Source: Betaproteobacteria bacterium
GTDB lineage: Bacteria > Pseudomonadota > Gammaproteobacteria > Burkholderiales > CAIKXV01
NCBI GenBank assembly: GCA_947458265.1
Contig: CANGYF010000009.1
Coordinates: 66,544 to 130,543 of the forward strand
DNA length: 64,000 nucleotides
Direction: 5' to 3'
A program made the position numbers and the translations under genes. Below the pieces are notes generated by a model. That model saw only the letters and a program-made list of their open reading frames with translations. It was not told where the DNA came from and did not search any database. How positions within the stretch are numbered: position 1 is the first letter of the stretch; each line of letters starts with the position of its first letter. Positions 22,318 to 47,326 of the stretch are shown here, piece by piece.

Positions 22318-24723
22318 TCAGCGTCGCGCGTAGTCGAGGAACTTCTCCGGCGTCACCCGGATCGCCGCGCCGGTGGGGCAGGCGCGCACGCAGGCCGGCC
22401 CGCCGCGCAGGTCGGTGCACATGTCGCACTTCACCGCATGCTTGGCCCCATCCTTCGCCGCAGCCAGCGTCTCGCACCCTGGCTCGTCGGTCAGGCCGGT
22501 GAGCAGCCAGGAAAGCAGGCTCGGCCGGCGCCGCTTCTCCACCACCGGCACCAGCTGGATCACGCCGTACGGGCAGTTCTTCTCGCAGTTGCCGCAACCG
22601 ATGCAGGTGTCGAGGATCGTTACCTCGCCTTCGGGGCTGCGCTGGATCGCGTCCGGCGGGCAGTCCTTCATGCAGTGCGGGTTCTCGCAATGGCGGCAGG
22701 ACGTGGGCACGTGAATGCTGGCGAAGGTGGGCCCGGCCTCGCGGTCGAGCCGCGAATTGCCGTCGTGGGTATCCGCGCAGGCCTTCTCGCAGTTGTCGCA
22801 GCGGATGCACAGGCTCTCGTCGATCAGCAGCACGTCGGTGGCCTCGCCGACCCCCTGCTTCATCAGGAAGCTGATCAGGTTGCCCGGGTCCGGCTCGCTC
22901 TCGCGCGCTGCATTGGCGGCGATGCGCTCGAGCACGCGCGCCTCGACGCTCCCACGCAGCGTGTTGTTGCGCATCAGCACTTCGTTGAACGTGCGCGCAT
23001 CCAAGACGATGCTCTCGGTGGACACCGCCGCGCGCACGGTCGCCGATCGCGGCGCGTCGGACAGCAGCGCCATCTCGCCCACGTAGTTCCCGGCAGCGAC
23101 ATACGACAGCACCACCTCGCGCCCGCCCAGGGTGCGCGACACCGTCACCGAGCCGCGGCGGATCAGGTGCAGCCCATCGGCCTTGTCGCCTTCGTGGAAC
23201 AGCACCTCGCCGGCATTGAACACGCTGATGCGCGCATTGGCCACCATCTCGTCGAGGTCGGCCGCGCTGATCCACGGGGCGATATTCGCGCGCACCGCGC
23301 GCTTGAGGAACACCTCGTCGACGCGCCGGCGCACCGACTCCACGCTGCCGATCAGCTTGAGCATCGTGCGCCGCGGCGTCTCGAGCAGCACGCAACCCGG
23401 GCCCGCACGCACCGTGCTCGCGCGCCGGCGGCCCGACACCAGCCCCATCTCGCCGAAGAACTCGCCGGTACGCAGGCGCACGTCGCTGCGCTTGCCTTCC
23501 TTGTCCAGCACCTCGATCAGCACCTCGCCTGCGACGATGACGAAGAACGAATTGGAGTAGTCGCCCTTGGCGAACACCACCGCGCCGGCGGCAGGCTGCT
23601 GCATCTCGCTCTCCAGCAGCACCTCGCGCAGTTGCAGCGTGGACAGCCCGGAGAACACCGGCACGGTGCGCTGGATGCGCGCGAGCGCTCCGGCAACATC
23701 CGTCGCCGCGTGCCAGCCCGCCAGGCGTCGCTTGAGCAGCGGCTCGTCGGCGGGTTCCACCGGAAAGCCCAGGATCGACTCGACCACCTCGTAGCCCTGG
23801 TTCATCGCCTGCTTGATCAGCGGGTAGCCCCCCAGGGCACCGACGATATACAGGCCGGGCACGTTGGACTCGTAGGTCGGAGACAGTTCGGGCACCGCGT
23901 TCGGGTCGTCGTTCGGAAAGGTGACGCCGAAGCTTTCGACGAGGCGGCGCGGAGGCGTTGCGCCCAGCCGGGCGATCACCCGGTCGCAATCGATGCTGTC
24001 CGAGCCGTCGCGCGTCTGCACCCGTACGCGCAGCGCACCGGCATCCACCGCCTCGACCGCCTCGGGCCGGGTGCTGAAGCGACACTCGATCACGCCGTCG
24101 CGGATCGCGCTGGTGACCAGGTCTAGGTTGCCCTGCTTGCAACGCGTGAACTCCTCGTTGCGGTTTAGCAGTACCACCCGGTTGCCATTGGCCAGTGCCA
24201 GCGCGTTCTCGATCGCCGCATCACCGGCGCCGACCACCACGATGGTCTCGCCGACATGGGCGCCGGGATCGTCGAGCTGGTACTGCACGCGCTCGAGGTC
24301 CTCGCCTGGCACGCCCAGCCGCCGCAGGTTGCCCTGCAGGCCGATTGCCAGCACCACATGCTCGGCGTGCACCGGCTCCTGGCCCTCGATGCCGAGCACG
24401 AACGCGCCGCGGCTGCCGGTGATCGAGACCACGGTGGCGCGATGGCGCACCACGACCCCAAGCGTCGCCACCTGCTCATCCCAGGTCTGCAGGATGCGCT
24501 CGCGCTTCCCGGCAGCGAACGACAGGTCGCTGCGCAACGGCAGGATGGCCGGCTCGGCCATCACGTGCTTGCCTTTCTGGTAGCGGAAGATGGTGTGCGA
24601 GAGATGCGACTCGGATTCGAGCAGCACGTGCGACACCCCGCGGTGCGCGGCGCGCGCAGCGCACGACAGGCCGCCCGGGCCAGAGCCGACGACGGCGATC
24701 TTCACCGACACGGGGGGGCTCAC
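22318..24723 (-). CDS. Cytoplasmic fusion protein: FAD/NAD(P)H pyridine-nucleotide-disulfide-type oxidoreductase, two cyclic-nucleotide-binding domains and an NrfC/DmsB-like four-cluster [4Fe-4S] ferredoxin
   Basis: KIAVVGSGPGG and TIVVVGAGDAA are dinucleotide folds. FGEMGLVSGRRRASTVRA and VGEMALLSDAPRSATVRA are cNMP motifs. There are four Cys groups: CIRCDNCEKAC, CRHCENPHCMKDCP, CIGCGNCEKNCP and CDMCTDLRGGPACVRACP. GTG start at 24723 in a GTGA overlap with the upstream stop (alternative GTG at 24711). No signal peptide. Confidence 0.8.
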   Translation of the reverse strand: MSPPVSVKIAVVGSGPGGLSCAARAAHRGVSHVLLESESHLSHTIFRYQKGKHVMAEPAILPLRSDLSFAAGKRERILQTWDEQVATLGVVVRHRATVVSITGSRGAFVLGIEGQEPVHAEHVVLAIGLQGNLRRLGVPGEDLERVQYQLDDPGAHVGETIVVVGAGDAAIENALALANGNRVVLLNRNEEFTRCKQGNLDLVTSAIRDGVIECRFSTRPEAVEAVDAGALRVRVQTRDGSDSIDCDRVIARLGATPPRRLVESFGVTFPNDDPNAVPELSPTYESNVPGLYIVGALGGYPLIKQAMNQGYEVVESILGFPVEPADEPLLKRRLAGWHAATDVAGALARIQRTVPVFSGLSTLQLREVLLESEMQQPAAGAVVFAKGDYSNSFFVIVAGEVLIEVLDKEGKRSDVRLRTGEFFGEMGLVSGRRRASTVRAGPGCVLLETPRRTMLKLIGSVESVRRRVDEVFLKRAVRANIAPWISAADLDEMVANARISVFNAGEVLFHEGDKADGLHLIRRGSVTVSRTLGGREVVLSYVAAGNYVGEMALLSDAPRSATVRAAVSTESIVLDARTFNEVLMRNNTLRGSVEARVLERIAANAARESEPDPGNLISFLMKQGVGEATDVLLIDESLCIRCDNCEKACADTHDGNSRLDREAGPTFASIHVPTSCRHCENPHCMKDCPPDAIQRSPEGEVTILDTCIGCGNCEKNCPYGVIQLVPVVEKRRRPSLLSWLLTGLTDEPGCETLAAAKDGAKHAVKCDMCTDLRGGPACVRACPTGAAIRVTPEKFLDYARR

Positions 24724-26210
24724 TTCGCGCCCCCACGGCGCGCCGCCTGCAGCGTCGCCGCGAACTCGCGCAGCCCGGCCTGGAACGCGACAGGCTGGTA
24801 CTTCTCGTCGTCGGCCACCAGCGCGAGCAGCCGCCTGAGCCCGGGCCCGAGCTGGTCCGGCGCCACCGCCTTCTGCCGCGCAAGGAAGTCGCCAAGACTC
24901 TGCAGCGCGAACACCGCCTGTTCGGCACCGGCGTAGTCGGTGTACTGGCTGGCCAGCCCGTCGGCCACCAGGGCCTCCATCATCGCCTGCAGATCGGCGG
25001 CCGCGAAACGGTGGGCAGCGATGCGCGGCAACAGGCCGTCGATCGCCTCGTACACGGCACGCGCCTGCGCGATCGGGTCGCCGGCGCCGGCGATCGCCTG
25101 GTGCAGGCGGTCGATCTGCTTCGCCAGCGCGGCCCCGGCGTCGGCATCGACGCGACGCGCCACCAGCCGCAGCATCAGCAGGTTCGAGTCGTTCAGTCGC
25201 ACGATCCCGGGGCCGGCCTTGAGCCGGGCCGCGAGGTAGCGGTTGCCGCGCATCGACTGGTGGCACGCATGGCAGTCGAACAGCACCAGTTCCGGGAACA
25301 ACCCGTCGCGACCGCGCTGCGGGTGCAGGAAGATCGCCAGCTGCTCCTGCGAGGCCACCGCCTGGCCGATCGCCCAGGCACGCACGCCGTCCCACGTACC
25401 CTTGCGCTCGCGCCAGTCGGCGTCGATGCGGAAATGCGCCGGTCCGAGCAGGGTGAACGTGTCGAGCTCGAAGCTCATCCTCGGATGCCCGGCCGCCATG
25501 ATCCTGTGGGTGACCAGCTTCTGCGCGTTGCCGAAGTGACAGGACACGCACAGGCGTGCGCGGTCGATGTCGTTGCTGGTCGGGTACAGCCCGTGGGCGA
25601 TGTTGTCGCGGTGGCTCGCGCCGCTCTCGACGTGGCGCCGCAGCCAGCGCTCGGCCGGCCCGTGGCAGGACTCGCAGGTCACGCCCTCGGTGATCGAGAA
25701 CTCCGGTGCGCGGCGCGCCGCCGGCGCGTTGTGCGCGTGGCAGTCCAGGCATACCGCAGCGCGGTGCGCAGGTTCAGTCAGACCCATCCGCTTGACGATC
25801 GCCTGCGACTTGTCGCTGAGCAGCGTGCGATAGGCGCGCGCGTGGCGGTCGCTGCGCTGCCAGACATGGAACTCGGTCTGCAGCACGTTCGAGCCGGGCC
25901 ACGCCTCCGCCGAGCCGTGACACAGGCTGTTCGCGCAACTGGCCACGCCGAGCGTGCGCTCGGCCGCGTACTGGGGGAGCCCGCGGGCCGGGGCGGCGAC
26001 GCCCGGGACGGCTGCCACTGCACGGCCTGGCCCTGGCAGGCCACCCCACAGCGCACCCGCCACGATGCAGCCAACGATAGCCGCGGCGAACGCCAGGGCG
26101 AGCGCTCGGCTGCGGCGCGCGCCGGCAGGCAGCGCCTGTGCGCCGGGCTGTGCCGTGGTAGACGATGGTACGGGGACGGATCGACGCAATATGCGCACGG
26201 GGAACCTCAT
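24720..26210 (-). CDS. Multihaem c-type cytochrome (4 CxxCH plus 1 Cx4CH) with an N-terminal anchor/signal and a helical C-terminal domain
   Basis: Start at 26210 in an ATGA overlap with the upstream stop. Haem motifs: CANSLCH (Cx4CH), CLDCH, CESCH, CVSCH, CHACH. The N-terminal part looks cytochrome c554-like. Confidence 0.8.
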   Translation of the reverse strand: MRFPVRILRRSVPVPSSTTAQPGAQALPAGARRSRALALAFAAAIVGCIVAGALWGGLPGPGRAVAAVPGVAAPARGLPQYAAERTLGVASCANSLCHGSAEAWPGSNVLQTEFHVWQRSDRHARAYRTLLSDKSQAIVKRMGLTEPAHRAAVCLDCHAHNAPAARRAPEFSITEGVTCESCHGPAERWLRRHVESGASHRDNIAHGLYPTSNDIDRARLCVSCHFGNAQKLVTHRIMAAGHPRMSFELDTFTLLGPAHFRIDADWRERKGTWDGVRAWAIGQAVASQEQLAIFLHPQRGRDGLFPELVLFDCHACHQSMRGNRYLAARLKAGPGIVRLNDSNLLMLRLVARRVDADAGAALAKQIDRLHQAIAGAGDPIAQARAVYEAIDGLLPRIAAHRFAAADLQAMMEALVADGLASQYTDYAGAEQAVFALQSLGDFLARQKAVAPDQLGPGLRRLLALVADDEKYQPVAFQAGLREFAATLQAARRGGAK

Positions 26211-29200
26211 CGCCGGAACAGCGTGCGATCGACCTGGTCGCGCACGCGCCACGGATCGCCTTCAGGGCGCAGGTAGAGCCGTCGCTGCTCGGCCAGGTCG
26301 AGCGGGCGCGAGCCGATTCGGCCGAACACCGCCACCTGCCCGCCAGTCTCGTCGACCGCGCGGTCGCGCTCCAGCCCGCGCGACAGGGCAAGCGCAGGAC
26401 TGCGCGTGGGCCGCCAGGCAATCAGCTGCGGCCTGGGCTCCGGGCTGAAGCCGTAGAACTTCGGCTGCGTGTCCGGTGCAGTGAGCTGCACCACCTTCAG
26501 CCCGTTACGCCCGTCCGCGACGTATGCGAACAGCGACGCGTTGGTCGAGCCGACCACCACGTCGCGGGCGTCGTTCAACACACCGCCGGCAGTGAAGCGC
26601 TGGACCACCCGCGGCTGCTCCGGATTCTCGACGTCTACGATCACCAGCCCCTCGCGCCCGGCCGCGACATAGGCGTAGGTGCGCGCGACATACACGCGGT
26701 TGGCCTCTGCCATCGGCACGGTGGCGCCCTCGACGCGCCGCGGGCGCTTCACATCGGTGACATCGAGCACAACCAGCCCATCGCGCGCGGCGACGAACAG
26801 GTAGCGAAACTGCAGCGTCGCCGCGCGTGCGCCTTCGACCGGCACCACGGTGACCAGTTGCGGCTTGAGCGGGTCGTCGAGGTCGACCACCGCGATGCCG
26901 CGCTCGACGGCGACGTAGGCGTAGTGGCCGCCCATCGTGATATGCCGCGCGCCGCGCAGCGCACCGCCCGCGTCCCAGGTAAGTGCCCGGCGCAGGAAGT
27001 TGTTGCGCGGCTCGCCGTCCTGCAGCGTGTCCACGTTGACCACGATCAGGCCCTCGCGCGCATCGGAGATGAACGCGTAGTGGTAGATCGGGTGGAACGG
27101 CTGTTCCTGGTTGACCCGGCGCATCAGGTCGCCCTGGTTCTTGAACGGGGCCACCGGCTGGTTGGTGGGCAGCGCGACGCAGGTCGCCTCCGCCGAGCGC
27201 ACCCGCGTGTCCTGCCCGAGCGGCGAGAACGGCGCGCTGACGATGCGCTGCGAGAAGCCCTTGTTCGCGATCGAGGCGACGTCGTACACCACCATGCCGC
27301 CCGGGCCCTCGGCCGCGTAGAGGTATTCGCCACGCATTTGCAGGCACTCCACCCGGCCGCGGGTGCGCTGGTCGTGCGCCTCGCGCAGGCGCCTGCCTCG
27401 ATTGTCGTGCGCGGCGAACCAGTCCGGGTACGCGTAGCGGTGCAGGTAGCTGCCGATCACCGCCTGCGGCTCCTCCCACTCGGTGACCTGCACCGCCTCG
27501 ACATGGCGCTCGCTGCCGACCCACGCGTTGAAGCCGACGAAGTTCACGAAGCCAGTGCCGTGCAGCAGCAGCTGCGCCATGATGGCGTTGTTGTCGTTGG
27601 CGGCCGACAGGTGGCAATCGGTGCAGGTCTTGGTCTCGGTCTTGCGCTCGGTGTGCGCATAGTGCGGCGCGAACGCCTGGCTGGAGAAGCCGGCGGAGGA
27701 AACGGGCGGCTGCTGGATGTAGATGCGCTCGCGGTTGCTGTTGGTCGAGGACAGCAGCAGCGCCGAGCTGGAGCGGATCGGCACGATCTTGCCCTGCTTG
27801 ACCGGGCCGTGGCGGCCGAGCTGGAACACGTCGTCGCGCACCACCTGCGGGTTATAGGTGGCGTAGTTGCGCGTCGCACCACCCTCGTAGTGGAGGCGAT
27901 CGGTCTTCCAGTTCGCCTCGATCGGCAGGTGGCAGCCCGAGCAACTCGTCGTCCACGAGGTGTGGCAGGTCTGGCAGGCCATCTTGTCGTCGCCGTGCGC
28001 ACGCTCCTGCGCGGGCACGCCCGGCCCCCAGGACTGGCGATAGCTGTCGAAAGCGCCGCGCGCGGTGAGCTTGGACCGCGCCGCCTTCTCGTTGTAATTC
28101 CGGTGCCCGGGGGTGACGGTATCGCGCACCAGCGACATCTCCCACTCCAGCCCGGGGGTGAGGGTGGAGCGCTGGTAGAGCCGGCCGCCACGCCACTCGA
28201 AGCGCGCCCGCCCGTCGGGCACGCGCATCAGCGAGAGGTTGTTGCCGCCCGGGCGCGCCGCCGGGCCCGAGGTGAACAGCGTCGGGTAGCGGTCTGCGGT
28301 GCCGTGGCAGTCGGCGCACTCGATCTCGATCGCCGCCGCGACCTCGCCATAAATGTGGCCGTTGCCGTGGGCGTCCTGGGAGAAGTGGCAGTCCACGCAG
28401 TGCATGCCCACGTCGAGATGGATCGAGGACATGTGTACCGACTTGCTGAACTTCTTGGGGTCGTCGTCGGCGACGATGCGCCCGTCCTTGTCGAGCAGGT
28501 TGCCCCTGCGGTCGCGCTTGAAGACCGCGCGGAAGTTCCAGCCGTGGCCGTGGTAGTCGGCGAACTGGGTGTCCTTCAGCTTCGGGTTGAGGTCCCACAC
28601 CCGCTTCAGGAACTCGAGCGAGCCCCAGTTGCCGAGTACCGCCGCGCCCTCCGGGTTGCGGTCAAGGATGCGGCGGCGTTCGGTGTGCGACGGGTGGCGC
28701 TGCTTCTCGGGCCACATGAACGGCGCATCGGCCTCGTAGTCCCACATCGTGTAGCCGAAGAAACTGTTCACGAACACGTTCGGCTGGTGCATGTGGCACA
28801 CCATGCACTGCGAGGACGGAATCGCGCGGGTGAACTCATGCCGCAGCGGGTGGCCGCTGCGGTCGCGCGGGATCGTCGGATCGGCGCTTACGCTGGTGCC
28901 CGAGTGGCCGTGCTGTGCGTAGGGCCCGGAATGGCGCGGCTCGCGGTCGTTCGCGTAAACGACGTGGCAGCTCGCGCAGCCGGAGGAGCGGTAATCGCCC
29001 GGCTGGTCGTTGCTGCCGAGGAACCAGGTGAACGGGTCGTTCAACCGCGTCTTGGTGATGTTGATCAACGGCACCGCGATGCGCTGGCCGGTACCCGGGC
29101 CGCGCACCGACTGGCGGATATCCGGCCGCCCCGGCTCGTCCAATGTCTGCAGCCGGCCGAGCACGTTGGGCAGTCCGATCTCCGGGAACAGGCTCTGGAT

Positions 29201-29998
29201 CACCCGGCCGCCGCGCTCGAACACCCGGAACACGTCGCCCGGGGGCATCGTCTCCCAGGCCGGCAGCGGAAACAGCTGCGCGAGCACGCCCTTGGCGAGG
29301 AGGAAGGCATCGGGCTTGACCGGGTTGACAATGGTCGCGCCGATGCCGTCGCGGGTATAGGCCTCGCCGAACAAGCCGCGCTTGAACGCGAACTCCGGCG
29401 GCAGGACGCCGTTGTTGTAGGCCGCACCATTCCACAGCATCGCGCCAGTGGCCATCAGGCTGCGCTCGGCCGCCTGGATGATCGGCAGGTGGCAGGCACC
29501 GCAGGCTTCGCGCGCGACCCGGTAGTCCGACGGATTGGTGAAGCGGATGAACTCGGGGCTCTCGCGGTTGAGCAGGGTGTAGCTGCGCTCGGGCGTGGCC
29601 GAGGACGGGTAGTTCCACTCGTTCGCAAAGCGCGGCATCACGTGAGCGCGATCGAGCGCTGCACGGTAGTCGCGCATCCGGTCACCCCGGTAGTCCGAAC
29701 CTGTCGGCCGCTGCACCATCGCATCCCCGCCGTGGCAGTCGGTGCAGCCAAGAGCCACCGCCGGATTGCGATGCATGGTCGCATGGTCGGTGGCGGTGTG
29801 GCAGGACACGCAGCCGGCGGACTTGGAATACGCCTCGGCATGGGACTGCTTCGCCGGCGCGGGCGGCGCGCCGGTGAACATGATGTCCGGAGGGCTCACC
29901 GTCGGACGCGCGGTGAGGCTGCCCGCAGCCTGCGAGGCGGTCACGCCGCCGGCCAGGGCCACCGCGATGCCGACCCACAGCAGCGCCAGGGCAGCCAT
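26207..29998 (-). CDS. Decahaem c-type cytochrome fused to a C-terminal LVIVD-repeat (beta-propeller-like) domain, ~1263 aa, secreted
   Basis: Start MAALALLWVGIAVALAGGVTASQAAG (signal) at 29998. Ten CxxCH motifs: CVSCH, CTDCH, CGACH, CASCH, CMVCH, CVDCH, CADCH, CQTCH, CSGCH, CTDCH. Six LVIVD-like repeats: GMVVYDV, GLIVVNV, GIAVVDL, GLVVLDV, GLVIVDV, GLKVVQL. Confidence 0.85.
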   Translation of the reverse strand: MAALALLWVGIAVALAGGVTASQAAGSLTARPTVSPPDIMFTGAPPAPAKQSHAEAYSKSAGCVSCHTATDHATMHRNPAVALGCTDCHGGDAMVQRPTGSDYRGDRMRDYRAALDRAHVMPRFANEWNYPSSATPERSYTLLNRESPEFIRFTNPSDYRVAREACGACHLPIIQAAERSLMATGAMLWNGAAYNNGVLPPEFAFKRGLFGEAYTRDGIGATIVNPVKPDAFLLAKGVLAQLFPLPAWETMPPGDVFRVFERGGRVIQSLFPEIGLPNVLGRLQTLDEPGRPDIRQSVRGPGTGQRIAVPLINITKTRLNDPFTWFLGSNDQPGDYRSSGCASCHVVYANDREPRHSGPYAQHGHSGTSVSADPTIPRDRSGHPLRHEFTRAIPSSQCMVCHMHQPNVFVNSFFGYTMWDYEADAPFMWPEKQRHPSHTERRRILDRNPEGAAVLGNWGSLEFLKRVWDLNPKLKDTQFADYHGHGWNFRAVFKRDRRGNLLDKDGRIVADDDPKKFSKSVHMSSIHLDVGMHCVDCHFSQDAHGNGHIYGEVAAAIEIECADCHGTADRYPTLFTSGPAARPGGNNLSLMRVPDGRARFEWRGGRLYQRSTLTPGLEWEMSLVRDTVTPGHRNYNEKAARSKLTARGAFDSYRQSWGPGVPAQERAHGDDKMACQTCHTSWTTSCSGCHLPIEANWKTDRLHYEGGATRNYATYNPQVVRDDVFQLGRHGPVKQGKIVPIRSSSALLLSSTNSNRERIYIQQPPVSSAGFSSQAFAPHYAHTERKTETKTCTDCHLSAANDNNAIMAQLLLHGTGFVNFVGFNAWVGSERHVEAVQVTEWEEPQAVIGSYLHRYAYPDWFAAHDNRGRRLREAHDQRTRGRVECLQMRGEYLYAAEGPGGMVVYDVASIANKGFSQRIVSAPFSPLGQDTRVRSAEATCVALPTNQPVAPFKNQGDLMRRVNQEQPFHPIYHYAFISDAREGLIVVNVDTLQDGEPRNNFLRRALTWDAGGALRGARHITMGGHYAYVAVERGIAVVDLDDPLKPQLVTVVPVEGARAATLQFRYLFVAARDGLVVLDVTDVKRPRRVEGATVPMAEANRVYVARTYAYVAAGREGLVIVDVENPEQPRVVQRFTAGGVLNDARDVVVGSTNASLFAYVADGRNGLKVVQLTAPDTQPKFYGFSPEPRPQLIAWRPTRSPALALSRGLERDRAVDETGGQVAVFGRIGSRPLDLAEQRRLYLRPEGDPWRVRDQVDRTLFRR

Positions 29999-30077: not shown

Positions 30078-32819
30078 TCAATAGGTGAGGATAAGGTTGG
30101 CGATGGCCGAGTACTGCCGGCTGTCGAGCGCATTGCCGTAGAGCTCGCGCAGGCCAGCCCCAGGGAACAGAACCGCGAGCGAGACGTTGATCACCACGTT
30201 CTGGATGAACAGCGGCCGGTACTGCACCGCCACCGATGCATCGTGGCCGATCATATTCGAATGCAGGCGCTGGTTACGCAGCGTCGCCAGCGACGACAGG
30301 TTGTCGAAAGCGAGCCGGTTGAGGTTGCCGATCAGCCGCACCTGCGGCGTGAGGTCCACGTCGGCACCGATGCCGATCAGGCGCAGCCCGGGGTTGGTGA
30401 AGTTCGCCTGGCCGTGCTCGCGCGAGGTGCGCAACGAAGCAAGCAGGCCGTTGCGCATCGACAGCGTGGTACCGCCCCCGCCCACCAGCGGCACCGCCTG
30501 GCGGATCCAGTAGCTGGTATCGGCGCCGGCGAACAGCGGGTTCTCCAGCACCGCGTCGAAGCCCTGCGCCTTCGCATCGAAAGGGTTGCGGTCGCCGGAG
30601 GCGTAGAGCGCGCTGGTGCGCAGCCGGATCCAGGAGAAGTCGCGCGAGACTTCGGCCGCGCCGAACCGTGCTTCGACCCGCTCGGGCTGGCCTGAGAGCT
30701 GGCCGCGGCTCACGTTACCGCTCGCCAGGTAGCCCGACAGGGACAGGTTCCAGCGGTTGTAGTGGCCGTCAGCGTTGAGGCCCAGCCAGGTAACGTCGTA
30801 GTCGTAGGGCCGACCCGAGCCGAACACCGCCGGCCGCTCGAGGAAGCCGTTGCCGTTGAAGAAGCGCGGGTTCGATCCCTCGCGGTTGCTGTTGCGCAGG
30901 ATGGTCCCCTGGGTGGTCACCCCAAGCACCGGGAAGTCCTGCCGGTAAAGATTGAACACGAACACGTCATCGTCGCGGGGGCGCTGCAGGATGTCGTTCA
31001 ACCCGCTGTTGGTGTCTTTCTCGAAGCGGCGGAACCACGCGAGGTTGTACTGGTACTGGTTATTGTCGCGGGTGCCGAACAGGCGAACCCCGAACGGCTG
31101 GTCGACGAACAGGAAACCGCGGAAATCGGAGGTGAACGGCTGCACGCCGACGCGCAGGCTGTCGAAGTCGTAGCGCTCGGACACGTCGCGCAGGTGCTTG
31201 TCGAAGAACAACTCCTGGAAGCCGACAAAGCCGTCGTTGCGGTTCGGACCGCTCACCGGGTCGATGTTGGTCAGCCGCACCTCTTCGGTCATCGTGCGGT
31301 TGAAGTTGACCACCGGCACGATCCGGTACTCGTAGTCGGGCGGCCGGAACACGGTGTTGCCCTTGATCAGGCCAAAGTTGAGGATGAGGGTCTGCGCGAA
31401 GGTCGCCTGGCGGCCGTTGCCAAACGAGCCCAGCGCACCGGGGCGCAGGGCGGACTGCGACCCGACCGGCACAGGCAGGCTGCGCGACTCGTAGAGCGAG
31501 TCCGAGATCGCGCTCACGTTGACGAACCACTCTGGCCCGAGCAGGTCCTCGAACACCGGCAGGTCGCCGCGCAGAGGGTTCGGGTTGTACGGATCCCATC
31601 GGTTGTACGGCAGCACGCCCAGTGCCTGCACGATGCGCCAGCGATCACGCACCGGGATCGAATCGCGCGGCGCCGACGGCGCGGGGCGGGCAGCCTGCGT
31701 CGGGTCGATCAGTGCGCGCCGCGGTTCGAGCGCACCGGCACCACCAGTCGGGCGACGCCGCTCGAGCGCGAGCGCCACTGGCGGGAGGTCTGGGCCACCC
31801 TGCGCCGGCGCGACACCGGGGCGCAGTGCCTCAGCCAGCCCGGCGGCGGACGCCGCGTCCGGGGCGGCTGGCTCGAGCGGCCCTCCGAGGTCGACCGGCT
31901 CCAGCGCCTGCCCGCTGCGCCGGCGGTCCACCGCCAGAACGTCCGCAGCGCCCTCGCGCCGCTGCCGTACCCAGGCCTGGTCGCCGTTGGCCCGCTGCAC
32001 GCGATACCAGTCGCCGAGGCGGCGGTCAGCCACCAGCAGCACGCCGATCTCCACCTGCGCCACGACCTCGGCGTCATCGGCCGCACGCGCCTGAAGTGCG
32101 AGCAGCGGCACCATCACCTGCAGCAGGAACGGCGCATCCTCGGGCGCTGGCAACGGTGCCGCCGGCACCGGGGCCGCTGCCGCGGCCACCGCCGAGGTCA
32201 CCCCCAGCGCGCGCGCATCCACCCAGCCGCGGCTGCGCGTCGCCGCCTTGCCTTGGCGCTCGACCTGCACCCAACTGCCTTCGCGCTGCGACGCCTGCAG
32301 CGGCTCGCCCACGACCAACCGGTCCAGTACACGGAAGCGCTCGCCGGCACCGGCGCGCAGGAGCGCCGGCTGCATCGCCTGCACCTCGACAGCCACCGCG
32401 CCAGGCAGCTCCGGGGGCAGCGCGACCAGCGCCGCCTCGCCGGTAGCGGGCGGGCCCGCCGCCGGAGCCTTTGCCCGGAGGCTACCGGGCGCAGGCCCTG
32501 AAGGCGTGGCTGCCACCCGCAAGCCGTCGGCAAACACCCAGCCCTGGGTGGCGCGACCGTCCTGCAGCCGTACCTGTGCCCAGCGGCCCTGCCGCTGCAT
32601 CACCACCGCCGGCACACCAGGCGCCCAGCCCGCGGTCTCGGGAGCGTCCTCCGAAGGTCGCTCGCGCAGCGGGGTCGGGCGCTCCACCCGCACCCGCTCG
32701 CTGGTGCCAGCCGGCGGCTGCGGCTGCGGCTGCGTCCAGGCTGGCGGCGCAACGAGCACCGCCCCGGCCAACGCAGCCGCAGCGGCAAGGCGCACGTGCT
32801 CAGAGGCCGTCGCAGACAT
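30078..32819 (-). CDS. Outer-membrane protein: signal peptide, three SH3b-like repeats and a ~560-aa predicted beta-barrel
   Basis: Start MSATASEHVRLAAAAALAGAVLV at 32819 (alternative GTG at 32795). The SH3b-like segments end in GWVFADGLRV, GWVDARALGV and AWVRQRREG. The C-terminal half has alternating amphipathic segments and ends ...AIANLILTY (terminal aromatic residue). Confidence 0.6.
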   Translation of the reverse strand: MSATASEHVRLAAAAALAGAVLVAPPAWTQPQPQPPAGTSERVRVERPTPLRERPSEDAPETAGWAPGVPAVVMQRQGRWAQVRLQDGRATQGWVFADGLRVAATPSGPAPGSLRAKAPAAGPPATGEAALVALPPELPGAVAVEVQAMQPALLRAGAGERFRVLDRLVVGEPLQASQREGSWVQVERQGKAATRSRGWVDARALGVTSAVAAAAAPVPAAPLPAPEDAPFLLQVMVPLLALQARAADDAEVVAQVEIGVLLVADRRLGDWYRVQRANGDQAWVRQRREGAADVLAVDRRRSGQALEPVDLGGPLEPAAPDAASAAGLAEALRPGVAPAQGGPDLPPVALALERRRPTGGAGALEPRRALIDPTQAARPAPSAPRDSIPVRDRWRIVQALGVLPYNRWDPYNPNPLRGDLPVFEDLLGPEWFVNVSAISDSLYESRSLPVPVGSQSALRPGALGSFGNGRQATFAQTLILNFGLIKGNTVFRPPDYEYRIVPVVNFNRTMTEEVRLTNIDPVSGPNRNDGFVGFQELFFDKHLRDVSERYDFDSLRVGVQPFTSDFRGFLFVDQPFGVRLFGTRDNNQYQYNLAWFRRFEKDTNSGLNDILQRPRDDDVFVFNLYRQDFPVLGVTTQGTILRNSNREGSNPRFFNGNGFLERPAVFGSGRPYDYDVTWLGLNADGHYNRWNLSLSGYLASGNVSRGQLSGQPERVEARFGAAEVSRDFSWIRLRTSALYASGDRNPFDAKAQGFDAVLENPLFAGADTSYWIRQAVPLVGGGGTTLSMRNGLLASLRTSREHGQANFTNPGLRLIGIGADVDLTPQVRLIGNLNRLAFDNLSSLATLRNQRLHSNMIGHDASVAVQYRPLFIQNVVINVSLAVLFPGAGLRELYGNALDSRQYSAIANLILTY

Positions 32820-34695
32820 TGGTGGCACTGGTGTCGAGGAACGGGGCGACCGGACACTGCACGTAGCGCAGGCGGGTGCCGGCGGCGCCGGGGACGATGG
32901 TGTCGGCGCGGATGCCCGCTGGCGCATTACCGATGCCGGTGGCGAGCCGAGTGCCGGCATTGGCCACGCCGAGGAAGGCGATCATGTCGTCCTGGTCCAC
33001 GCCGTCGCCGGAAATGCCGATCGCGCCTACCAGCGCCGCGCCACGGTAGATGGGCACGCTGCCGGGGAAGATCTGGATGCCGTTCTGCGCGCGCGGCAGG
33101 CCGGTACAACCGACCACGGCCGAGCCAGTCGCCGCGGCGACGATGTTGTTGAAAGACAGGTCGAGCTGCAGGCCGACGGTGAACGGACTCCACTGCGCGA
33201 ACGGCTTCGACAGCGGGCCGCTGGCCGAGCCGTTGATCCCATCGGGGAAGAACGGGCGAGCCAGGTTGCCGACCGCGCGGTTGCTGTAGGCGACGCCGTC
33301 GGACAGCGCCGCCGGATTGGCAACGAAGGCTCGCAACTGCGTGACATACGCCCCGATCGGCGAGGCCGGGTTGGGCGCGAGATAGGCGGCATCGGGCAGC
33401 GCCGCAAGGTCGGTCGCGGTGTTCGGATGCGAGAACAGCAGCGCGGTGCGCGCCTTCTGCAGCGACACATCGGTGCCGAATACCGGTGCATCGGCGGTGC
33501 GTACCAGCCCGAGCACCTCGCCGGCGGTGTCCACGATCGAGATCGTCACCTGCGCCGGCGAGCCGAGCGGGCGGCGGATCTGTGCGCGGGTGCGGTTGGC
33601 CACCCTTAGCGCCTCGGCAAGCAGCGCGACCACCTCCGCCTGGGCGAGCAGCCCGTCGGTGCCGGCACGCGGCGCGAAGCGATTGGCGTTGGCGCCGTCG
33701 ACCAGCACATAGGCACCCAGCGCCGCCAGCTCGGGCTGCGTGTCGGGCCGGTAGCCAGAGGCCGGCGTGCCGTAGGCCTCGCCGGCCACGAGCGCGGCGG
33801 CGGCGTAGCCGGCCACCGCCACCAGCGTGCCGGCGGTGCCGTTGATGCTGGCGAAGGCAGGCGCGGCGGCGGGGTTGGACAACAGCGCCTCGGAGTCGAC
33901 GAAGCGCAGGGTGCGCCCGTCAGCGGTGATCCGGTCGGCGCGCCGGTCAGCCGGCGCGGCGAAGCCGCTCGACCCAGCCACCGCGATCAGCTCGTCCAGG
34001 GCGGCGTCGACGTCATTGATGTCGAGGTCGATGCCGTAGGTGCCATCGGCGATCACGCCGATGCCACCGACCACCGTACCGTTCTTGTACAGCGGCAGGC
34101 CGCCGGGATCGGCGGCAAGCCCGAGCGGCGAGCGCTTGGGGCCGATGCTGCCGTCGGCCTGCCGGCGCATCAGGTCGGAGCAGGACAGCTGCGAGAACTG
34201 CACGCCGAACAGCGGGCCGCCCGGCTGGCCGGTCTCGCCCGGGTTGAAGTTCTGCTGCACGATCTGGCCGGCGGTGCGGGTGGTGAACGCATTGCCCTCG
34301 GATGACAGGTAGGCGCCGGTGAGTGCCTTGCTGATCGCAGCGAAGGTCGCCGGCAGCACGTTCACGCCTTCCAGCCCGCCGGAGACGCCACGCCCGCCGG
34401 AGATGTTGAACGTGGCGGCCGCGCCGCCCATGCTGAACACTGCCAGCACGTTGCCCACGCGGTCGACCACGGCGATGGTGGCGCTGGCGCCGCGCGCCTG
34501 CGCCTCGGCCACCGCCTGGCTCAGGATGCGCCCGACCTCGGCAGTGCTCAATGCGGTGGGCGTGGCGAAGCAGCCGCCCGTGCAGCCGCCGGAGGCACCC
34601 GGCGTGCCGCCGTCACCACCGCCACCGCCGCCACAGCCGGCGAGCAGGACAAACAGCAGCACAGACAGCATCCGACGTAGACCGGTCGCACTCAT
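32800..34695 (-). CDS. Lipoprotein with two tandem GlcG/HbpS-like (DUF336, haem-binding/'haem-degrading') domains
   Basis: Start MSATGLRRMLSVLLFVLLAGCGGGGGG (lipobox LAGC) at 34695 in an ATGA overlap with the upstream stop. Domain 1: ATIAVVDRVGNVLAVFSM...GGLPLYKNGTVVGGIGV. Domain 2: ISIVDTAGEVLGLVRT...SLQKARTALLFS...VPIYRGAALVGAIGISGDGVDQDD. Confidence 0.7.
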   Translation of the reverse strand: MSATGLRRMLSVLLFVLLAGCGGGGGGDGGTPGASGGCTGGCFATPTALSTAEVGRILSQAVAEAQARGASATIAVVDRVGNVLAVFSMGGAAATFNISGGRGVSGGLEGVNVLPATFAAISKALTGAYLSSEGNAFTTRTAGQIVQQNFNPGETGQPGGPLFGVQFSQLSCSDLMRRQADGSIGPKRSPLGLAADPGGLPLYKNGTVVGGIGVIADGTYGIDLDINDVDAALDELIAVAGSSGFAAPADRRADRITADGRTLRFVDSEALLSNPAAAPAFASINGTAGTLVAVAGYAAAALVAGEAYGTPASGYRPDTQPELAALGAYVLVDGANANRFAPRAGTDGLLAQAEVVALLAEALRVANRTRAQIRRPLGSPAQVTISIVDTAGEVLGLVRTADAPVFGTDVSLQKARTALLFSHPNTATDLAALPDAAYLAPNPASPIGAYVTQLRAFVANPAALSDGVAYSNRAVGNLARPFFPDGINGSASGPLSKPFAQWSPFTVGLQLDLSFNNIVAAATGSAVVGCTGLPRAQNGIQIFPGSVPIYRGAALVGAIGISGDGVDQDDMIAFLGVANAGTRLATGIGNAPAGIRADTIVPGAAGTRLRYVQCPVAPFLDTSATNVCDGL

Positions 34696-36428
34696 CGGTG
34701 AACTCCCTTCGCGCGCAGCGCCGCCAGCACCTCTGCCGCCGCGCTCTCGCGGGTGCCGTGGAAACCGTGGCACAGCGCGCACTCGGACCGTACCTTGCCC
34801 TTCTCCGCACGCGCGCCCACATGGCACTCGCGGCATTCGCGCACGCCAGGCATCGCCACATCGGCGGCACTGCGCGAGCGCTCGACCTGGTGGCAGTCCC
34901 CGCACTTGGCCGTCGCATGGCTCGCATGCGTGAAGCTTGAGTACGGCATCCACGCCTGCGTGACCCGCACAGGCGCGACGTCCCAGCGCGTGGGCCCGCC
35001 AGCCGGATCGCGCGCGCGCAGCACCTCGTGGCATGTGGAACACACCGCGCGCGTCTCGAACAGCTCGCGCAGCGCCAGCTCGGCGCGGCGGTCGGCCGAG
35101 CCAAGCGACGCAGAACGCTCCAGCGGCGTGGAGTCGGCGCCCGGCCGGGCGCGCGCCGTCGCACGTTCCTCGGTCAGCGTGCCGGCGTAGAGGTGGCGCG
35201 CGTAGTAGTCGCGCAGCATCGGCAGCATCGCCTCGACCCTGCCGTGCGGCACCTGCCGCGTCGCCCCCGGCTCGAAGGTGAGGGCGTGGCAGGACTGGCA
35301 GTGTCGCTCCATGGTGACCGGCGCGAAGCGCCGCCCGTCGCGTTCCGGTTCGTGACAGCTCGCGCACTCGAGGACCTCGCGCCGCTGCGGCCCGCGGATG
35401 CCTTTCGCATCAAGGTGGATCTCGTGGTTGAACTTCAGGTTGGAGCGCTCGCGCGGCGGCGGGACGTCATTCAGGCGCACGCGGCGCACCTGCGGCGGCT
35501 CGCCCGGGTCGAGCAGCGACAGCCGGAACTCCGGATGGTCGCGCGCGAAGTCGACCACCTTGCCCGACTGTGCCTGCCCGGCCGTGCGGCGGATATCGCG
35601 ATGGCAGTCGGCACAGAACGCCTGCGAGAACGGCTGCGCCTGCGGGCCCTTGTGGTCGCGATGGCACTCGGCGCAGCGGGTCGCAGCGAAGCGCTCTCCA
35701 TCCGGGCCGGTGAGTTCAGGGTGCGGCACGTGGTCGCGGATGCCCTTGTGGCACTCGAGGCAGGCGCGGTCACGCACCTGTACGAACGGCAACTCGTGGC
35801 AGGCGCGGCACTCGAAGGCCGCGGCCTGGTGCGCGTTCATGAGCGGGCCCGGGTCCCATGACTGCTGCATGCGATCCGCCCCCTCCCGCAAGCGCTGCGC
35901 GTCGGCGGCCGAGGGCGTACCGACCCAGGCCGCCGCGATCCCGCCGGGGCCGAACAGGTCGGGCGCGGCAGGCAGCAGCAGGAACGGCACCAGGATGCCG
36001 AAGAACATCAGGTAGGACAGCGTCCGGCGCCACGATCTCGCCGGCGGCAGCAGCACCTGCTGCGCCTCGCGGCCAGCGTCGGCGGCCAGCCGCGACGAGG
36101 GCTCGATACGCAGCGCGAGCGCGGCGGCGTCGGGCGGCGGATCGACGGTGATGCGAAACGGCCCGATGTCGATACGGTCGCCGGGCACGATACGCTGCGC
36201 ATTGACCACCCGGCCGTTGACCTCGAGCTCGCCGGAGAGGCTGGCGATCGTCGCCTCGTCCCCCGATACCGTGATGCGCGCATGCTCGAGCAGCACGCGC
36301 GGATCGGGCAGGTGCACCTGGCAGCCGGTACCGCGCCCCACCAACAGCACCGCCCCGGCGACACGGCGCGCGACACGCACCGGCTGGCCGTGTCGTCCGG
36401 GGGTGACGTAGGTGAGCTGGGTCTCCAT
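34692..36428 (-). CDS. FHA-like domain, single TM helix and periplasmic decahaem cytochrome c
   Basis: The N-terminus LLVGRGTGCQVHLPDPRVLLEHARITV...LEVNGRVV...GDRIDIGPFRITV is FHA-like. TM helix: LSYLMFFGILVPFLLLPAAP. Ten CxxCH motifs: CRACH, CLECH, CAECH, CADCH, CASCH, CQSCH, CSTCH, CGDCH, CRECH, CALCH. Confidence 0.8.
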   Translation of the reverse strand: METQLTYVTPGRHGQPVRVARRVAGAVLLVGRGTGCQVHLPDPRVLLEHARITVSGDEATIASLSGELEVNGRVVNAQRIVPGDRIDIGPFRITVDPPPDAAALALRIEPSSRLAADAGREAQQVLLPPARSWRRTLSYLMFFGILVPFLLLPAAPDLFGPGGIAAAWVGTPSAADAQRLREGADRMQQSWDPGPLMNAHQAAAFECRACHELPFVQVRDRACLECHKGIRDHVPHPELTGPDGERFAATRCAECHRDHKGPQAQPFSQAFCADCHRDIRRTAGQAQSGKVVDFARDHPEFRLSLLDPGEPPQVRRVRLNDVPPPRERSNLKFNHEIHLDAKGIRGPQRREVLECASCHEPERDGRRFAPVTMERHCQSCHALTFEPGATRQVPHGRVEAMLPMLRDYYARHLYAGTLTEERATARARPGADSTPLERSASLGSADRRAELALRELFETRAVCSTCHEVLRARDPAGGPTRWDVAPVRVTQAWMPYSSFTHASHATAKCGDCHQVERSRSAADVAMPGVRECRECHVGARAEKGKVRSECALCHGFHGTRESAAAEVLAALRAKGVHR

Positions 36429-36434
36429 CGCCGG

Positions 36435-37289
36435 CTACCAGAAGTAGAACACCGACACCACGTGCGCAATCAGCGCAGCGATGGCACCGAAGGACAGCGG
36501 CACGTGCAACAACAGCCATACCCGCATCGCCGCGCGCAGCTGCAGGTCGCGGCGCGCGCGCGCCAGCAGTTCGCGCTTGCGCACCATCGCCGCGAGCAGC
36601 CGCTCGCCCAGTCGTACCTGCTCTGTCGAGAGCTTCGGCGCGAGTGCGGCGGGCAACCGGGTACAGGCCTCGCGCGTGGGGCAGCGCACGCGCTCGCCGC
36701 GCAGCTCGCGCAGCAGCCCGCCGCCCACGCGCGACTGGCGCGCCCGCATCACCAGCGCGTTGACCTCATCGGGCAGGTTCATCGCCAGCGCCTCGCACTC
36801 GCGGTCGATCTCGCCGACCTTCAGGACGAGCGTGTCGATGGTGTCGTCGCCGAGGTTGGCGGTCACCAGCGCCGGGTAACGCAGGTAGACGAGCACCCCG
36901 TACACGCCGCTCGCCGATACCGCCAGAACCAGTACCCAGGCGAGCGTATGTACGTTCCAGCCCAGTTCGAAGCCGGCGTGCAGGGTGGCAACCACCAGGA
37001 CGGCACCGCCGAGGTACACGTGAGCGGAGGTCCAGCCCTGCACGGTGCCGAGTCTGGAGCCGTAGCGACGCTTGCGGATGCCCAGCAGCATCAGCCACAG
37101 CATCAGCAGCGCGGCGATAGTGCCCAGCGTGTAGCCAAGCCAGGTGCCGCCGTAGTGCTTGGGGTAGCGCGGCGTCGGGTCGATCCAGAGATACGCGACC
37201 GTGGCAACCACGACCAGACACAGCGCCAGCTTCAGATAGCGGGCGCGCCGGTACTCGAGCAGCGACTGGTGGTGGCGCGAGGCGAGCAT
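36435..37289 (-). CDS. Integral membrane protein (5 predicted TM helices) with two H-x13-H helices; putative di-haem b-type transmembrane electron carrier
   Basis: TM3 is SAHVYLGGAVLVVATLHAGF and TM5 is LLLHVPLSFGAIAALIAHVV. Each has two His exactly 13 residues apart. ATG at 37289 is preferred; the longest ORF starts at 37361. The stop lies 6 nt before the FHA-cytochrome start. Confidence 0.6.
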   Translation of the reverse strand: MLASRHHQSLLEYRRARYLKLALCLVVVATVAYLWIDPTPRYPKHYGGTWLGYTLGTIAALLMLWLMLLGIRKRRYGSRLGTVQGWTSAHVYLGGAVLVVATLHAGFELGWNVHTLAWVLVLAVSASGVYGVLVYLRYPALVTANLGDDTIDTLVLKVGEIDRECEALAMNLPDEVNALVMRARQSRVGGGLLRELRGERVRCPTREACTRLPAALAPKLSTEQVRLGERLLAAMVRKRELLARARRDLQLRAAMRVWLLLHVPLSFGAIAALIAHVVSVFYFW

Positions 37290-37412
37290 TTTTCGCACGG
37301 GTGACCGCTTCGACGGCGACGCGGCTGCAACCCAGCATGACGACATCAAGCGGACGATCATACTCGATCAATATGACAGGCCAGAAGGCCGCGCGAAGGC
37401 CCCCGAGGGCGC

Positions 37413-38225
37413 TCAGCGCGATGGCCTGGCAGCCGTCGCCGCTTCGAGCGGGGCCACCGGGGTGCATCCGGGGCATCCCGGCAGGGCGAACTCGAACATG
37501 CCAGGCGCGCGCTCGACGCCCGTCTCGCGCAGCAGCGGCAGCAACTGCTCGCGCACCCCCGGCGCCACCGACGCGCGCAGGTACGCCTGCTCCAGCCGCG
37601 CCTCCCGCCACGCAGCCTCCCCCGCCAGTTCGAGGTCCCCTCCGCGCGTGACCAGCCGCGCACGCGCCGAACCACCGTGCGCATCGACCTCGATCCGGTA
37701 ATCGCCGAGGACGATACCCGGCAGGTGGCGCGACCGCGCTTCGGACCAGTCGATACTCGCCTGCACCCGCCAGCCGCCGCGCTCGTGCGCGAGCGCCTGC
37801 ACCTGGAGCCGCGGCCGCCCGGCCAACGCGAGCGCCGCGGTATGCGGCCACAGCGCCACCAGCGCTTCAGCCGGGAGTGCCAGCTCGAACGGTGCTGCGG
37901 TCAGCGTGCCCACGCCCAGTTCGACCGCGACGTCCCGCGCGTCGAGCTGCAGGACGAGCGCCAGCACCGGGCGCAGGCCCGGCAGCGGGCGTACGCGCCA
38001 TTGCACTGGCCAGGAAGCGATCGGGACACCCGCGGGCGAGCGCCACTGCAGTCGGCCCGCGCCGTGCCAGAGGCCACCGCGCGCCTCCAGCAGCCGCAGC
38101 TGACCGGCAGAACGCGTGGCCAGCGCGCGATCGAGCCAGGTGGCCGGCGCGAGCAGGACCAGGGCCAGCGCCAGCACGACGATGGCGCAGCCCGCGCGCA
38201 GCAGCAGGCGATCCACGGTCAGCAA
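37413..38225 (-). CDS. gspN: Type II secretion system protein N
   Basis: 270 aa with an N-terminal TM helix, then LEARGGLWHGAGRLQW, typical of GspN. It is the last gene of the gspG-N string. Confidence 0.75.
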   Translation of the reverse strand: MLTVDRLLLRAGCAIVVLALALVLLAPATWLDRALATRSAGQLRLLEARGGLWHGAGRLQWRSPAGVPIASWPVQWRVRPLPGLRPVLALVLQLDARDVAVELGVGTLTAAPFELALPAEALVALWPHTAALALAGRPRLQVQALAHERGGWRVQASIDWSEARSRHLPGIVLGDYRIEVDAHGGSARARLVTRGGDLELAGEAAWREARLEQAYLRASVAPGVREQLLPLLRETGVERAPGMFEFALPGCPGCTPVAPLEAATAARPSR

Positions 38226-38240
38226 CCCTCGCCCGGCGCT

Positions 38241-42332: not shown

Positions 42333-42396
42333 GCCGCCGCAATCGTGGCCGCAACCGTGGCCGAACTCGTGACCGAACTCGGGGCGCAGGCGCCGC

Positions 42397-42852: not shown

Positions 42853-43047
42853 CGGTCCATCCATGATCGACAGAGTGTCCCCCATCCTTCGCACGGCAGT
42901 CAAAGCGGGCAGGCGCGCCACACACGCTCAGCGCGCGCGCCTCGGCGCGCAGGCAAACCGCTATACACTATCCGAGGGCAAAGCATGTGCGTGCGATCGC
43001 CACCGCGTCGCGACGCGCGCAAACGATGCGGGACACGTGGGGGGGAC

Positions 43048-45812: not shown

Positions 45813-45819
45813 CTGCGCC

Positions 45820-47319: not shown

Positions 47320-47326
47320 CGCGGCC

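Follow-up and report, generated by a model that had tools for sequence, protein, structure and literature searches.

Extracellular electron transfer is currently explained by a few outer-membrane solutions, namely the MtrCAB, PioAB and MtoAB systems, the Pcc and Ext systems of Geobacter, and Cyc2. The barrel of MtrB has 26 strands and that of Cyc2 has 16 (PMC8406198). A candidate porin-cytochrome gene cluster, PCC4, has been described on bioinformatic grounds by He et al. in 2017, and the inner-membrane protein of PCC3 and PCC4 carries two WX3HX13H motifs and one SGxxG motif (PMC5566968). Here we analyse a gene from a Betaproteobacteria bacterium of the Burkholderiales, located at positions 30078-32819 on the minus strand of a 64,000-nucleotide stretch of DNA (assembly GCA_947458265.1, contig CANGYF010000009.1, positions 66,544 to 130,543; hereafter the window). 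It encodes a protein in which three SH3b domains precede a predicted outer-membrane beta-barrel, and it lies between the genes for an HbpS-like lipoprotein and a decahaem cytochrome with an LVIVD propeller. We propose that the protein supplies the outer-membrane part of a hitherto uncharacterised redox module that spans the envelope, in which the barrel would act as a narrow conduit in the manner of Cyc2 and the SH3b domains would form a tether that most likely binds peptidoglycan. Taken as one layered statement, we consider this somewhat better than an even bet, with a probability of about 0.55.

PCC4 is the nearest description of this module. Both contain a predicted outer-membrane barrel and several multihaem cytochromes, and both motif types of the PCC4 inner-membrane protein (about 300 residues, five transmembrane helices) are found exactly in a 284-residue protein of the window, with WX3HX13H at residues 86 and 258 and SGxxG at residue 127 (residues 110, 282 and 151 of the 308-residue open reading frame (ORF) 36435-37361(-)). 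In gammaproteobacterial loci the gene for this membrane protein has a PF13247 Fe-S gene immediately upstream, as in PCC4 subgroup II, and the hosts of PCC4 include Gamma- and Alphaproteobacteria, Planctomycetes and metagenome-assembled genomes (MAGs) from drinking-water filters. The PCC4 cytochromes have 4, 5 and 10 haems, compared with the 4(+1), 10 and 10 that are conserved here. The accessible part of the PCC4 description makes no mention of an HbpS-like lipoprotein, an LVIVD propeller, an FHA domain or SH3b domains, and a search seeded from an alphaproteobacterial barrel returned no Hyphomicrobium relatives. It is plausible that the two modules are identical, as compared by description, motifs and haem counts rather than by porin sequence.

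Like the barrel described here, that of Cyc2 is small (16 strands as against 18) and too narrow for a multihaem wire, and its cytochrome is located at the periplasmic N-terminus of the barrel, the position at which three relatives of our protein carry a tetrahaem domain. Unlike Cyc2, however, the protein has no CxxCH motif of its own, its N-terminal modules are SH3b domains and it would rely on separate partners; its fold is also nearest to AlgE and OprD rather than to the phosphate porins OprO and OprP, again unlike Cyc2. The genetic logic of three components is closer to that of MtrB, PioB and MtoB, where the barrel is encoded beside a decahaem cytochrome and a lipoprotein. The lipoprotein in our operon is nevertheless HbpS-like and lacks CxxCH, whereas MtrC is a decahaem protein, and the barrel is considerably smaller than the 26-strand MtrB. 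Barrels of the MtrB/PioB type have some 26-28 strands and are wide enough for a decahaem cytochrome, which is not the case for our model, and a Pfam search of the protein gave no match to MtrB_PioB (PF11854) at E<=1.

Other systems resemble parts of the locus. A sub-module of Ferrigenium straubiae combines an FHA-multihaem cytochrome with a five-transmembrane protein and a [4Fe-4S] protein, which is the architecture of window positions 34692-37289 and 22318-24723; it is called unprecedented and of unknown function in the available portion of the preprint (10.64898/2026.01.22.701106), where its FHA-cytochrome is given nine haems, as against 10 CxxCH motifs here, and where an adjacent barrel-lipoprotein-LVIVD trio goes unmentioned. 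A relationship to ExtI and ExtM of Geobacter was considered and rejected. The barrel has no NCBIfam match, the match of the LVIVD cytochrome to ExtM is local, involves haem motifs and scores 72 bits against a cutoff of 800, and ExtI, at 380 residues, is a much smaller barrel. The plan of module, linker and barrel is shared with the wall-tethered barrels OmpM (N-terminal SLH; PMC10628300), OmpA (C-terminal OmpA-like domain) and intimin/invasin (N-terminal LysM), but the wall-binding-type module of our protein and its relatives is, unlike any of these, SH3b, in one to three copies. In the literature searched we found no description of an SH3b-barrel fusion, nor of the trio of HbpS-like protein, barrel and LVIVD cytochrome.

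The barrel domain and its family

The gene itself is secure. Gene callers chose the ATG at 32819 on four independent public contigs, a public collection holds an identical protein (P0001), and homologue alignments begin at the same start; the translation of 913 residues ends ...NLILTY*. Since the TGA of the upstream lipoprotein gene lies at 32800-32802, the two genes overlap by exactly 20 nucleotides, as a reading made earlier from the sequence alone (hereafter the sequence-only reading) had noted for this start codon. The same reading had assigned a signal peptide, and the hydrophobic N-terminus, MSATASEHVRLAAAAALAGAVLVAPPAWT, in which residues 4-23 form a helix in both of the structural models described below, does look as expected of a Sec signal peptide.

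Structure prediction with AlphaFold2 was run twice, with an alignment of 68 diverse family members and with one of 110 mostly SH3-bearing relatives. Both runs gave 18 long antiparallel strands over residues ~431-913, with predicted local distance difference test (pLDDT) values mostly above 90; the strand count was made with DSSP. When the model was compared with the PDB by Foldseek, the 18-stranded AlgE ranked first (E ~1e-15, target-normalised template modelling score 0.6-0.68) and accounted for the top 17 matches (E 1e-15 to 5e-13), followed by the 18-strand OprD/Occ channels and other porins. All of the top 50 matches were monomeric porin-type barrels, and MtrB was not among them; OmpM1 was also among the fold matches. 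AlgE and OprD/Occ have the same number of strands as our barrel, but they share no detectable sequence relationship with it and occur in another genomic context, and they lack the conserved lead-in and the 71-residue conserved loop that our protein has in addition. In sequence searches the barrel domain had no match in Pfam, including Alginate_exp (PF13372), or in NCBIfam, and a family profile searched against PDB sequences recovered neither MtrB nor AlgE, only two chance matches to thymidine kinases.

The hydrophobic N-terminus, the even number of strands in two models and the C-terminal aromatic residue are those of outer-membrane barrels in general, and the sequence-only reading had been right to predict one; the structure prediction that it had named as a test does model a barrel. 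Its extent had been put at ~560 residues; barrel and lead-in together come to ~525. By geometric estimate, 18 strands correspond to a C-alpha radius of ~16-18 Å and 26 strands to ~25 Å. As modelled, the barrel is of the small, specific-channel class rather than the cytochrome-sheath class, and it could probably not enclose a decahaem cytochrome. The earlier reading had implied a barrel like those of MtrB, PioB and OmbB with a cytochrome threaded through it, which is not supported by a model that has 18 strands, resembles AlgE and OprD/Occ and lacks an MtrB_PioB match. An estimate of lumen charge from strand parity came to net 0 but was not robust.

Two segments stand out by their conservation. 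In the lead-in that precedes the barrel throughout the family, R393, P410, N414, K417, D419 and P421 are nearly invariant among the 68 diverse members. The 71-residue segment at residues 741-811 holds many of the invariant residues of the family; from the topology of the model it is probably extracellular loop 7, and we infer that it is possibly folded into the barrel lumen.

Homology searches for the family were seeded with the barrel domain alone, excluding the SH3 and low-complexity parts. An exhaustive search with a profile of this domain matched the representatives of 1,586 clusters at 50% identity with E<=1e-3, of which 483 reached E<=1e-30, while each of two word-indexed searches of a 90%-identity collection gave at least 8,000 candidates. 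Almost all are annotated at source as 'hypothetical protein' or 'SH3 domain-containing protein'. The family is very common in metagenomes from soil, freshwater, sand filters and wastewater, and has members in Planctomycetes and 'Deltaproteobacteria' as well. Four loci (L010, L028, L034 and L076) come from MAGs labelled Streptomycetaceae, Streptomyces, Pedobacter or Patescibacteria despite carrying the outer-membrane module of a diderm; these labels are probably binning or labelling errors, because the barrels are 57-68% identical to proteobacterial ones.

SH3b domains and the variable N-terminal position

When the three SH3b segments, each of ~70 residues, were scanned alone against Pfam, each scored above a gathering threshold of SH3_3 or SH3_4 (Table 1). 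The whole protein scored 58.8 bits with SH3_3 (PF08239) and 54.8 bits with SH3_4 (PF06347), and a home-built SH3b hidden Markov model gave domain E-values of 7e-12, 7e-13 and 3e-17 for SH3b-1, SH3b-2 and SH3b-3, respectively. SH3b-3 is the most conserved copy (WYRV motif), with E257, G259, W271, Y272, R273, V274 and W283 invariant among the ten closest homologues (alignment A1). In the AlphaFold2 run with SH3-containing homologues, pLDDT was ~95 for SH3b-3, 57-87 for SH3b-2 and low for SH3b-1, which is present in few homologues and stays poorly modelled in this second run. The models of domains 2 and 3 have the SH3b fold, a small beta-barrel like those of wall-binding domains, and comparison of the N-terminal part with BFVD by Foldseek gave SH3b wall-binding domains of phage endolysins, with root-mean-square deviations of 1.6-2.7 Å over 59-75 columns. 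Ala, Pro and Gly together make up 61%, 64% and 49% of the three linkers, compared with 21% of the barrel. The three SH3b-like repeats and the Ala/Pro-rich linkers of the sequence-only reading are thus both confirmed.

In the second AlphaFold2 run the long linker between SH3b-3 and the barrel falls below a pLDDT of 50 at residues 301-361, and the predicted template modelling score (pTM) of the whole model is 0.60 (0.62 in the first run). Given this pTM and the low confidence of the linkers, there is no sign of rigid docking of the SH3b domains on the barrel, and both values fit a flexible tether. The SH3b domains should be periplasmic, and the tether is long enough to reach the wall. As possible docking sites for them, the sequence-only reading had suggested peptidoglycan or partner cytochromes. 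A conserved motif within the linker, RRRPxG..LEPR(L)PxIDPxQ(V)PPP at residues ~354-380, is kept in all close homologues and may be a partner-binding or assembly motif.

The SH3b domains do not hold up as a core feature of these proteins. Of 150 diverse family representatives, 147 lack them; they are usually single-copy where the subfamily has them, and elsewhere other modules replace them. Among 119 close relatives with barrels at least 65% identical to ours, 75 have one SH3b copy, 27 have two, six have three and 11 have none, and most gammaproteobacterial loci have room for only ~80-130 residues ahead of the barrel. A CarboxypepD_reg domain occupies the SH3b position in seven of the 68 diverse members; SPOR (in one relative), fn3, HEAT and a tetrahaem cytochrome c3 domain are also found there. 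The last of these, with four CxxCH motifs, takes the place of SH3b in three representatives (P0066, P0080 and P0155). A tetrahaem-barrel fusion is likewise encoded on a Blastocatellia-type contig (L090, 10001-12304), where the gene for the LVIVD cytochrome adjoins it and the HbpS-like gene is divergent. By these sequence comparisons, SH3b is an addition particular to one lineage, a single betaproteobacterial subfamily, and our protein is the extreme of a variable periplasmic adaptor position. Since most family members do without SH3b, it appears dispensable for the core function.

The operon and its conservation

The genes on the minus strand follow the order gspG-N, 284-residue membrane protein, FHA-cytochrome, HbpS-like lipoprotein, barrel, LVIVD cytochrome, c554-like cytochrome and FAD/NAD(P)H-cNMP-4Fe-4S protein (Table 1; cNMP, cyclic nucleotide monophosphate). 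Overlaps of 4, 20, 4 and 4 nucleotides and gaps of 6 and 79 nucleotides indicate that the cytochrome genes form one operon; the larger gap separates the barrel gene from the start of the LVIVD cytochrome gene. The barrel gene thus lies among multihaem cytochrome genes and is translationally coupled to the lipoprotein gene, in agreement with the sequence-only reading, which had noted neighbouring cytochromes and the overlap with the lipoprotein gene. A promoter scan returned no promoters, and terminator-like sites occurred at the level of shuffled sequence.

The HbpS-like lipoprotein has Gly at position +2, after the lipidated Cys, which under the Lol +2 rule is the pattern of sorting to the outer membrane. 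Its CxGxC motif is conserved just past the tether as GCTGGC, GCSGGC or GCDGSC, and a lipobox-like motif occurs in the HbpS-like protein of 54 of 66 loci. From these sequence features we predict that, in the proteobacterial loci examined, it is a lipoprotein of the outer membrane. In the LVIVD cytochrome, which has ~126 residues per haem, a Sec signal is present but neither lipobox nor anchor, and matches to LVIVD and choice-of-anchor-B suggest that it is exposed at the surface. An inner-membrane anchor holds the FHA-cytochrome, whose periplasmic part is much denser in haem, at ~42 residues per haem; its FHA domain suggests phospho-threonine-dependent control of the electron wire. The 284-residue membrane protein had no match in Pfam or NCBIfam. 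Its dihaem-b signature is ferric-reductase-like.

Synteny was assessed in 80 loci from GTDB species genomes, onto which the window proteins were mapped. The order membrane protein, FHA-cytochrome, HbpS-like protein, barrel and LVIVD-cytochrome recurs in essentially all of the loci whose flanks are long enough, and barrels that are only 31-34% identical still have the same neighbours in the same order. Wherever neighbouring genes could be read, the trio of HbpS-like protein, barrel and LVIVD-cytochrome was present, in Acidobacteria as well, where the barrel is fused to a CarboxypepD_reg or tetrahaem domain and the HbpS-like gene is divergently oriented. The position of the Fe-S flavoprotein gene varies: it lies downstream, at the 3' end of the operon, in Betaproteobacteria and just upstream of the membrane protein gene in Gammaproteobacteria. 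The numbers of haem-binding motifs hardly vary, with 10 CxxCH in 54 of 55 FHA-cytochromes and 60 of 61 LVIVD-cytochromes, and the four CxxCH and one CX4CH of the c554-like protein kept in 38-39 of 41 loci. The complete type II secretion system (T2SS) of the window, whose gspG-N genes read directly into the cytochrome operon, counts in favour of the module reaching the surface, and T2SS genes are found near the module in four other loci (L009, L011, L018 and L020), but not in most. Elsewhere in the window, a gene at 3444-5819 (-) codes for a molybdenum hydroxylase large subunit from the aerobic CO-dehydrogenase/xanthine dehydrogenase family; its NCBIfam score of 608 bits falls short of the equivalog cutoff.

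Table 1. Positions of the SH3b-barrel gene, its parts and the neighbouring genes within the 64,000-nucleotide window.
Feature	Position	Strand	Details
SH3b-barrel gene	30078..32819	-	913 residues + stop; signal peptide, three SH3b domains, long linker, predicted 18-strand barrel
Signal-peptide-like N-terminus	32733..32819	-	residues 1-29, MSATASEHVRLAAAAALAGAVLVAPPAWT; hydrophobic segment, inferred cleavage site
SH3b domain 1	32526..32696	-	residues 42-98; SH3_4 28.6 bits (gathering cutoff 24.1)
SH3b domain 2	32211..32387	-	residues 145-203; SH3_3 30.3 bits (gathering cutoff 27)
SH3b domain 3	31959..32126	-	residues 232-287; SH3_4 33.4 bits (cutoff 24.1); nearest the barrel
SH3b-to-barrel linker	31656..31958	-	~100 residues, Ala/Pro/Gly-rich, low model confidence
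Conserved lead-in before barrel	31530..31655	-	residues 389-430, DRWRI...PY..DPYNPNxLKGDLP; present family-wide
18-strand beta-barrel (predicted)	30081..31529	-	residues 431-913; AlphaFold2, DSSP, Foldseek; ends aromatic ..NLILTY
Conserved segment, strands 13-14	30387..30599	-	residues 741-811, ENPLFAGADTSYWIRQ..GGGG..RNG..LRTSREHGQ.NF.NPGL
HbpS-like lipoprotein	32800..34695	-	631 residues; lipobox LLAGC, Gly-rich tether, CxGxC motif, four PF03928 stretches
LVIVD cytochrome, secreted	26207..29998	-	1263 residues; 10 CxxCH, C-terminal LVIVD beta-propeller
FHA-cytochrome	34692..36428	-	578 residues; cytoplasmic FHA domain, one transmembrane helix, periplasmic part with 10 CxxCH
Inner-membrane protein	36435..37289	-	284 residues, five transmembrane helices; two WX3HX13H + one SGxxG (dihaem-b type)
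Cytochrome c554-like protein	24720..26210	-	496 residues; 4 CxxCH + 1 CX4CH, N-terminal anchor or signal
Cytoplasmic protein	22318..24723	-	801 residues; FAD/NAD(P)H (pyridine-nucleotide-disulphide) oxidoreductase, two cNMP-binding domains, 4Fe-4S dicluster (includes PF13247)
Type II secretion gspG-N	37413..42831	-	co-directional, immediately upstream of the cytochrome operon
gspD, gspE, gspF	42987..48517	+	divergent from gspG-N; T2SS complete

Proposed role, alternatives and significance

In the redox module that we propose, the barrel, the HbpS-like lipoprotein and the LVIVD cytochrome would form one outer-membrane complex. Electrons would pass from the cytoplasmic NAD(P)H/Fe-S flavoprotein to the b-haem membrane protein and on to the inner-membrane-anchored decahaem wire, which would hand them to the c554-like cytochrome and then to the trio in the outer membrane. 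This complex would be the outer end of a path that leads to the cell surface or to a substrate inside the pore. A barrel of only 18 strands would not sheathe a decahaem cytochrome as MtrB does. Cyc2 is the closest working analogy, because the barrel is too small for a decahaem cytochrome and has relatives with a fused periplasmic tetrahaem domain: the periplasmic mouth of the barrel would be the point of electron hand-over, as in Cyc2, and the pore would be occupied by a soluble redox substrate or a slim segment of a partner. The SH3b domains, on their long periplasmic tether, would most likely bind peptidoglycan, which would keep the complex in register with the envelope. SPOR is a peptidoglycan-binding domain, and the SPOR-bearing relative together with the endolysin-type fold supports peptidoglycan binding by SH3b. 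A bolder version, which we put forward only tentatively, holds that the trio conducts electrons across the outer membrane in a way that is new and separate from both MtrCAB and Cyc2. It would be fed on its inner side by a NOX-like split b-haem/Fe-S flavoprotein together with the FHA-regulated decahaem wire, and would in Burkholderiales also be pinned to peptidoglycan by SH3b. Electrons would then cross by way of something slim, for which the candidates would be an HbpS-like domain loaded non-covalently with haem, a partner's short stalk that bears haem and is lodged in the pore, or a redox-active solute there.

Several points weigh against the proposed redox role. The localisation, complex formation and redox function of every member are read from sequence and models. 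The modelled 18-strand barrel offers no obvious haem path across a membrane of ~3-4 nm, which makes the crossing of electrons the weakest step. Peptidoglycan binding by SH3b is assumed by analogy with the domain class, and tethering cannot be essential to the module, because the N-terminal module is mostly absent or is one that does not bind peptidoglycan (CarboxypepD_reg, fn3, HEAT). Linkage to the T2SS is confined to a minority of loci. Finally, all family matches, including those of the search seeded from an alphaproteobacterial barrel, were to MAGs or metagenomes, and no cultured host was found.

The likeliest of the alternatives, although we still consider it unlikely, is a substrate-specific diffusion channel (for Fe2+, Mn2+ or an anion, for example), with all redox chemistry left to the periplasm, where the LVIVD-propeller decahaem enzyme would perform it together with its partner cytochromes. 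Its fold class, which includes AlgE, OprD/Occ and the phosphate and sugar porins, is one of specific channels. The LVIVD cytochrome could be periplasmic, given that its Sec signal comes with neither lipobox nor anchor, and the lack of a universal T2SS linkage is in keeping with this; record titles also show that many of the source MAGs come from sand filters, and one bin from a Mn-oxidising reactor. A plain channel would not, however, be expected to show strict synteny across phyla and translational coupling with a lipoprotein, nor to occur in fusion with a tetrahaem cytochrome, as it does in some lineages, and surface proteins are the typical carriers of LVIVD and choice-of-anchor domains. 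It is improbable that the barrel serves instead as an export or assembly conduit, exposing or anchoring the HbpS-like lipoprotein or part of the LVIVD cytochrome at the surface with no part in electron transfer, on the principle of a plug and barrel or of a barrel that translocates lipoproteins. The AlgE exporter barrel works with the lipoprotein AlgK, and a barrel partnered by a lipoprotein would be in line with this, as would the 20-nucleotide overlap of the two genes and the long Gly-rich tether behind the lipid anchor of the lipoprotein. Yet the barrel resembles none of the known lipoprotein-exposing barrels and has no match in Pfam or NCBIfam, the lipoprotein gene of Acidobacteria is divergent rather than coupled, and the fused tetrahaem variants would go unexplained.

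A sheath of the MtrB/PioB type, with a multihaem cytochrome threaded through the lumen to carry electrons across the outer membrane, we regard as a shade less probable still. The barrel gene does lie between multihaem cytochrome genes in one operon, and the periplasmic part of the FHA-cytochrome is haem-dense and wire-like; but this cytochrome is anchored in the inner membrane, and the LVIVD cytochrome, with its propeller and its sparse haems, is too bulky for threading. The barrel falls eight strands short of the 26 in MtrB (PMC8406198), it lacks an MtrB_PioB match in Pfam, its top 50 fold matches are porin-type with AlgE and OprD/Occ leading and MtrB missing, and it has a long conserved candidate for an internal loop of its own at residues 741-811. 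That the protein is an AlgE-like exporter of anionic polysaccharide, present in a cytochrome operon by chance, is hardly credible even with AlgE as the best structural match: PF13372 does not match it, neither the window operon nor the loci inspected contain genes for polysaccharide synthesis or export, and synteny with cytochromes holds in every locus.

The SH3b-barrel protein joins known themes, those of porin-cytochrome modules and of wall-tethered barrels, and its fusion of SH3b domains to a barrel would provide a new case of a wall-tethered porin. The wider module is of more interest than this SH3b decoration. The barrel family is large and has neither a curated model nor a studied member. 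If the trio is a conduit, it would represent a widespread and structurally different route for electrons across the outer membrane, and its genes would serve as markers of redox activity in uncultured Burkholderiales, Lysobacterales and Acidobacteria.

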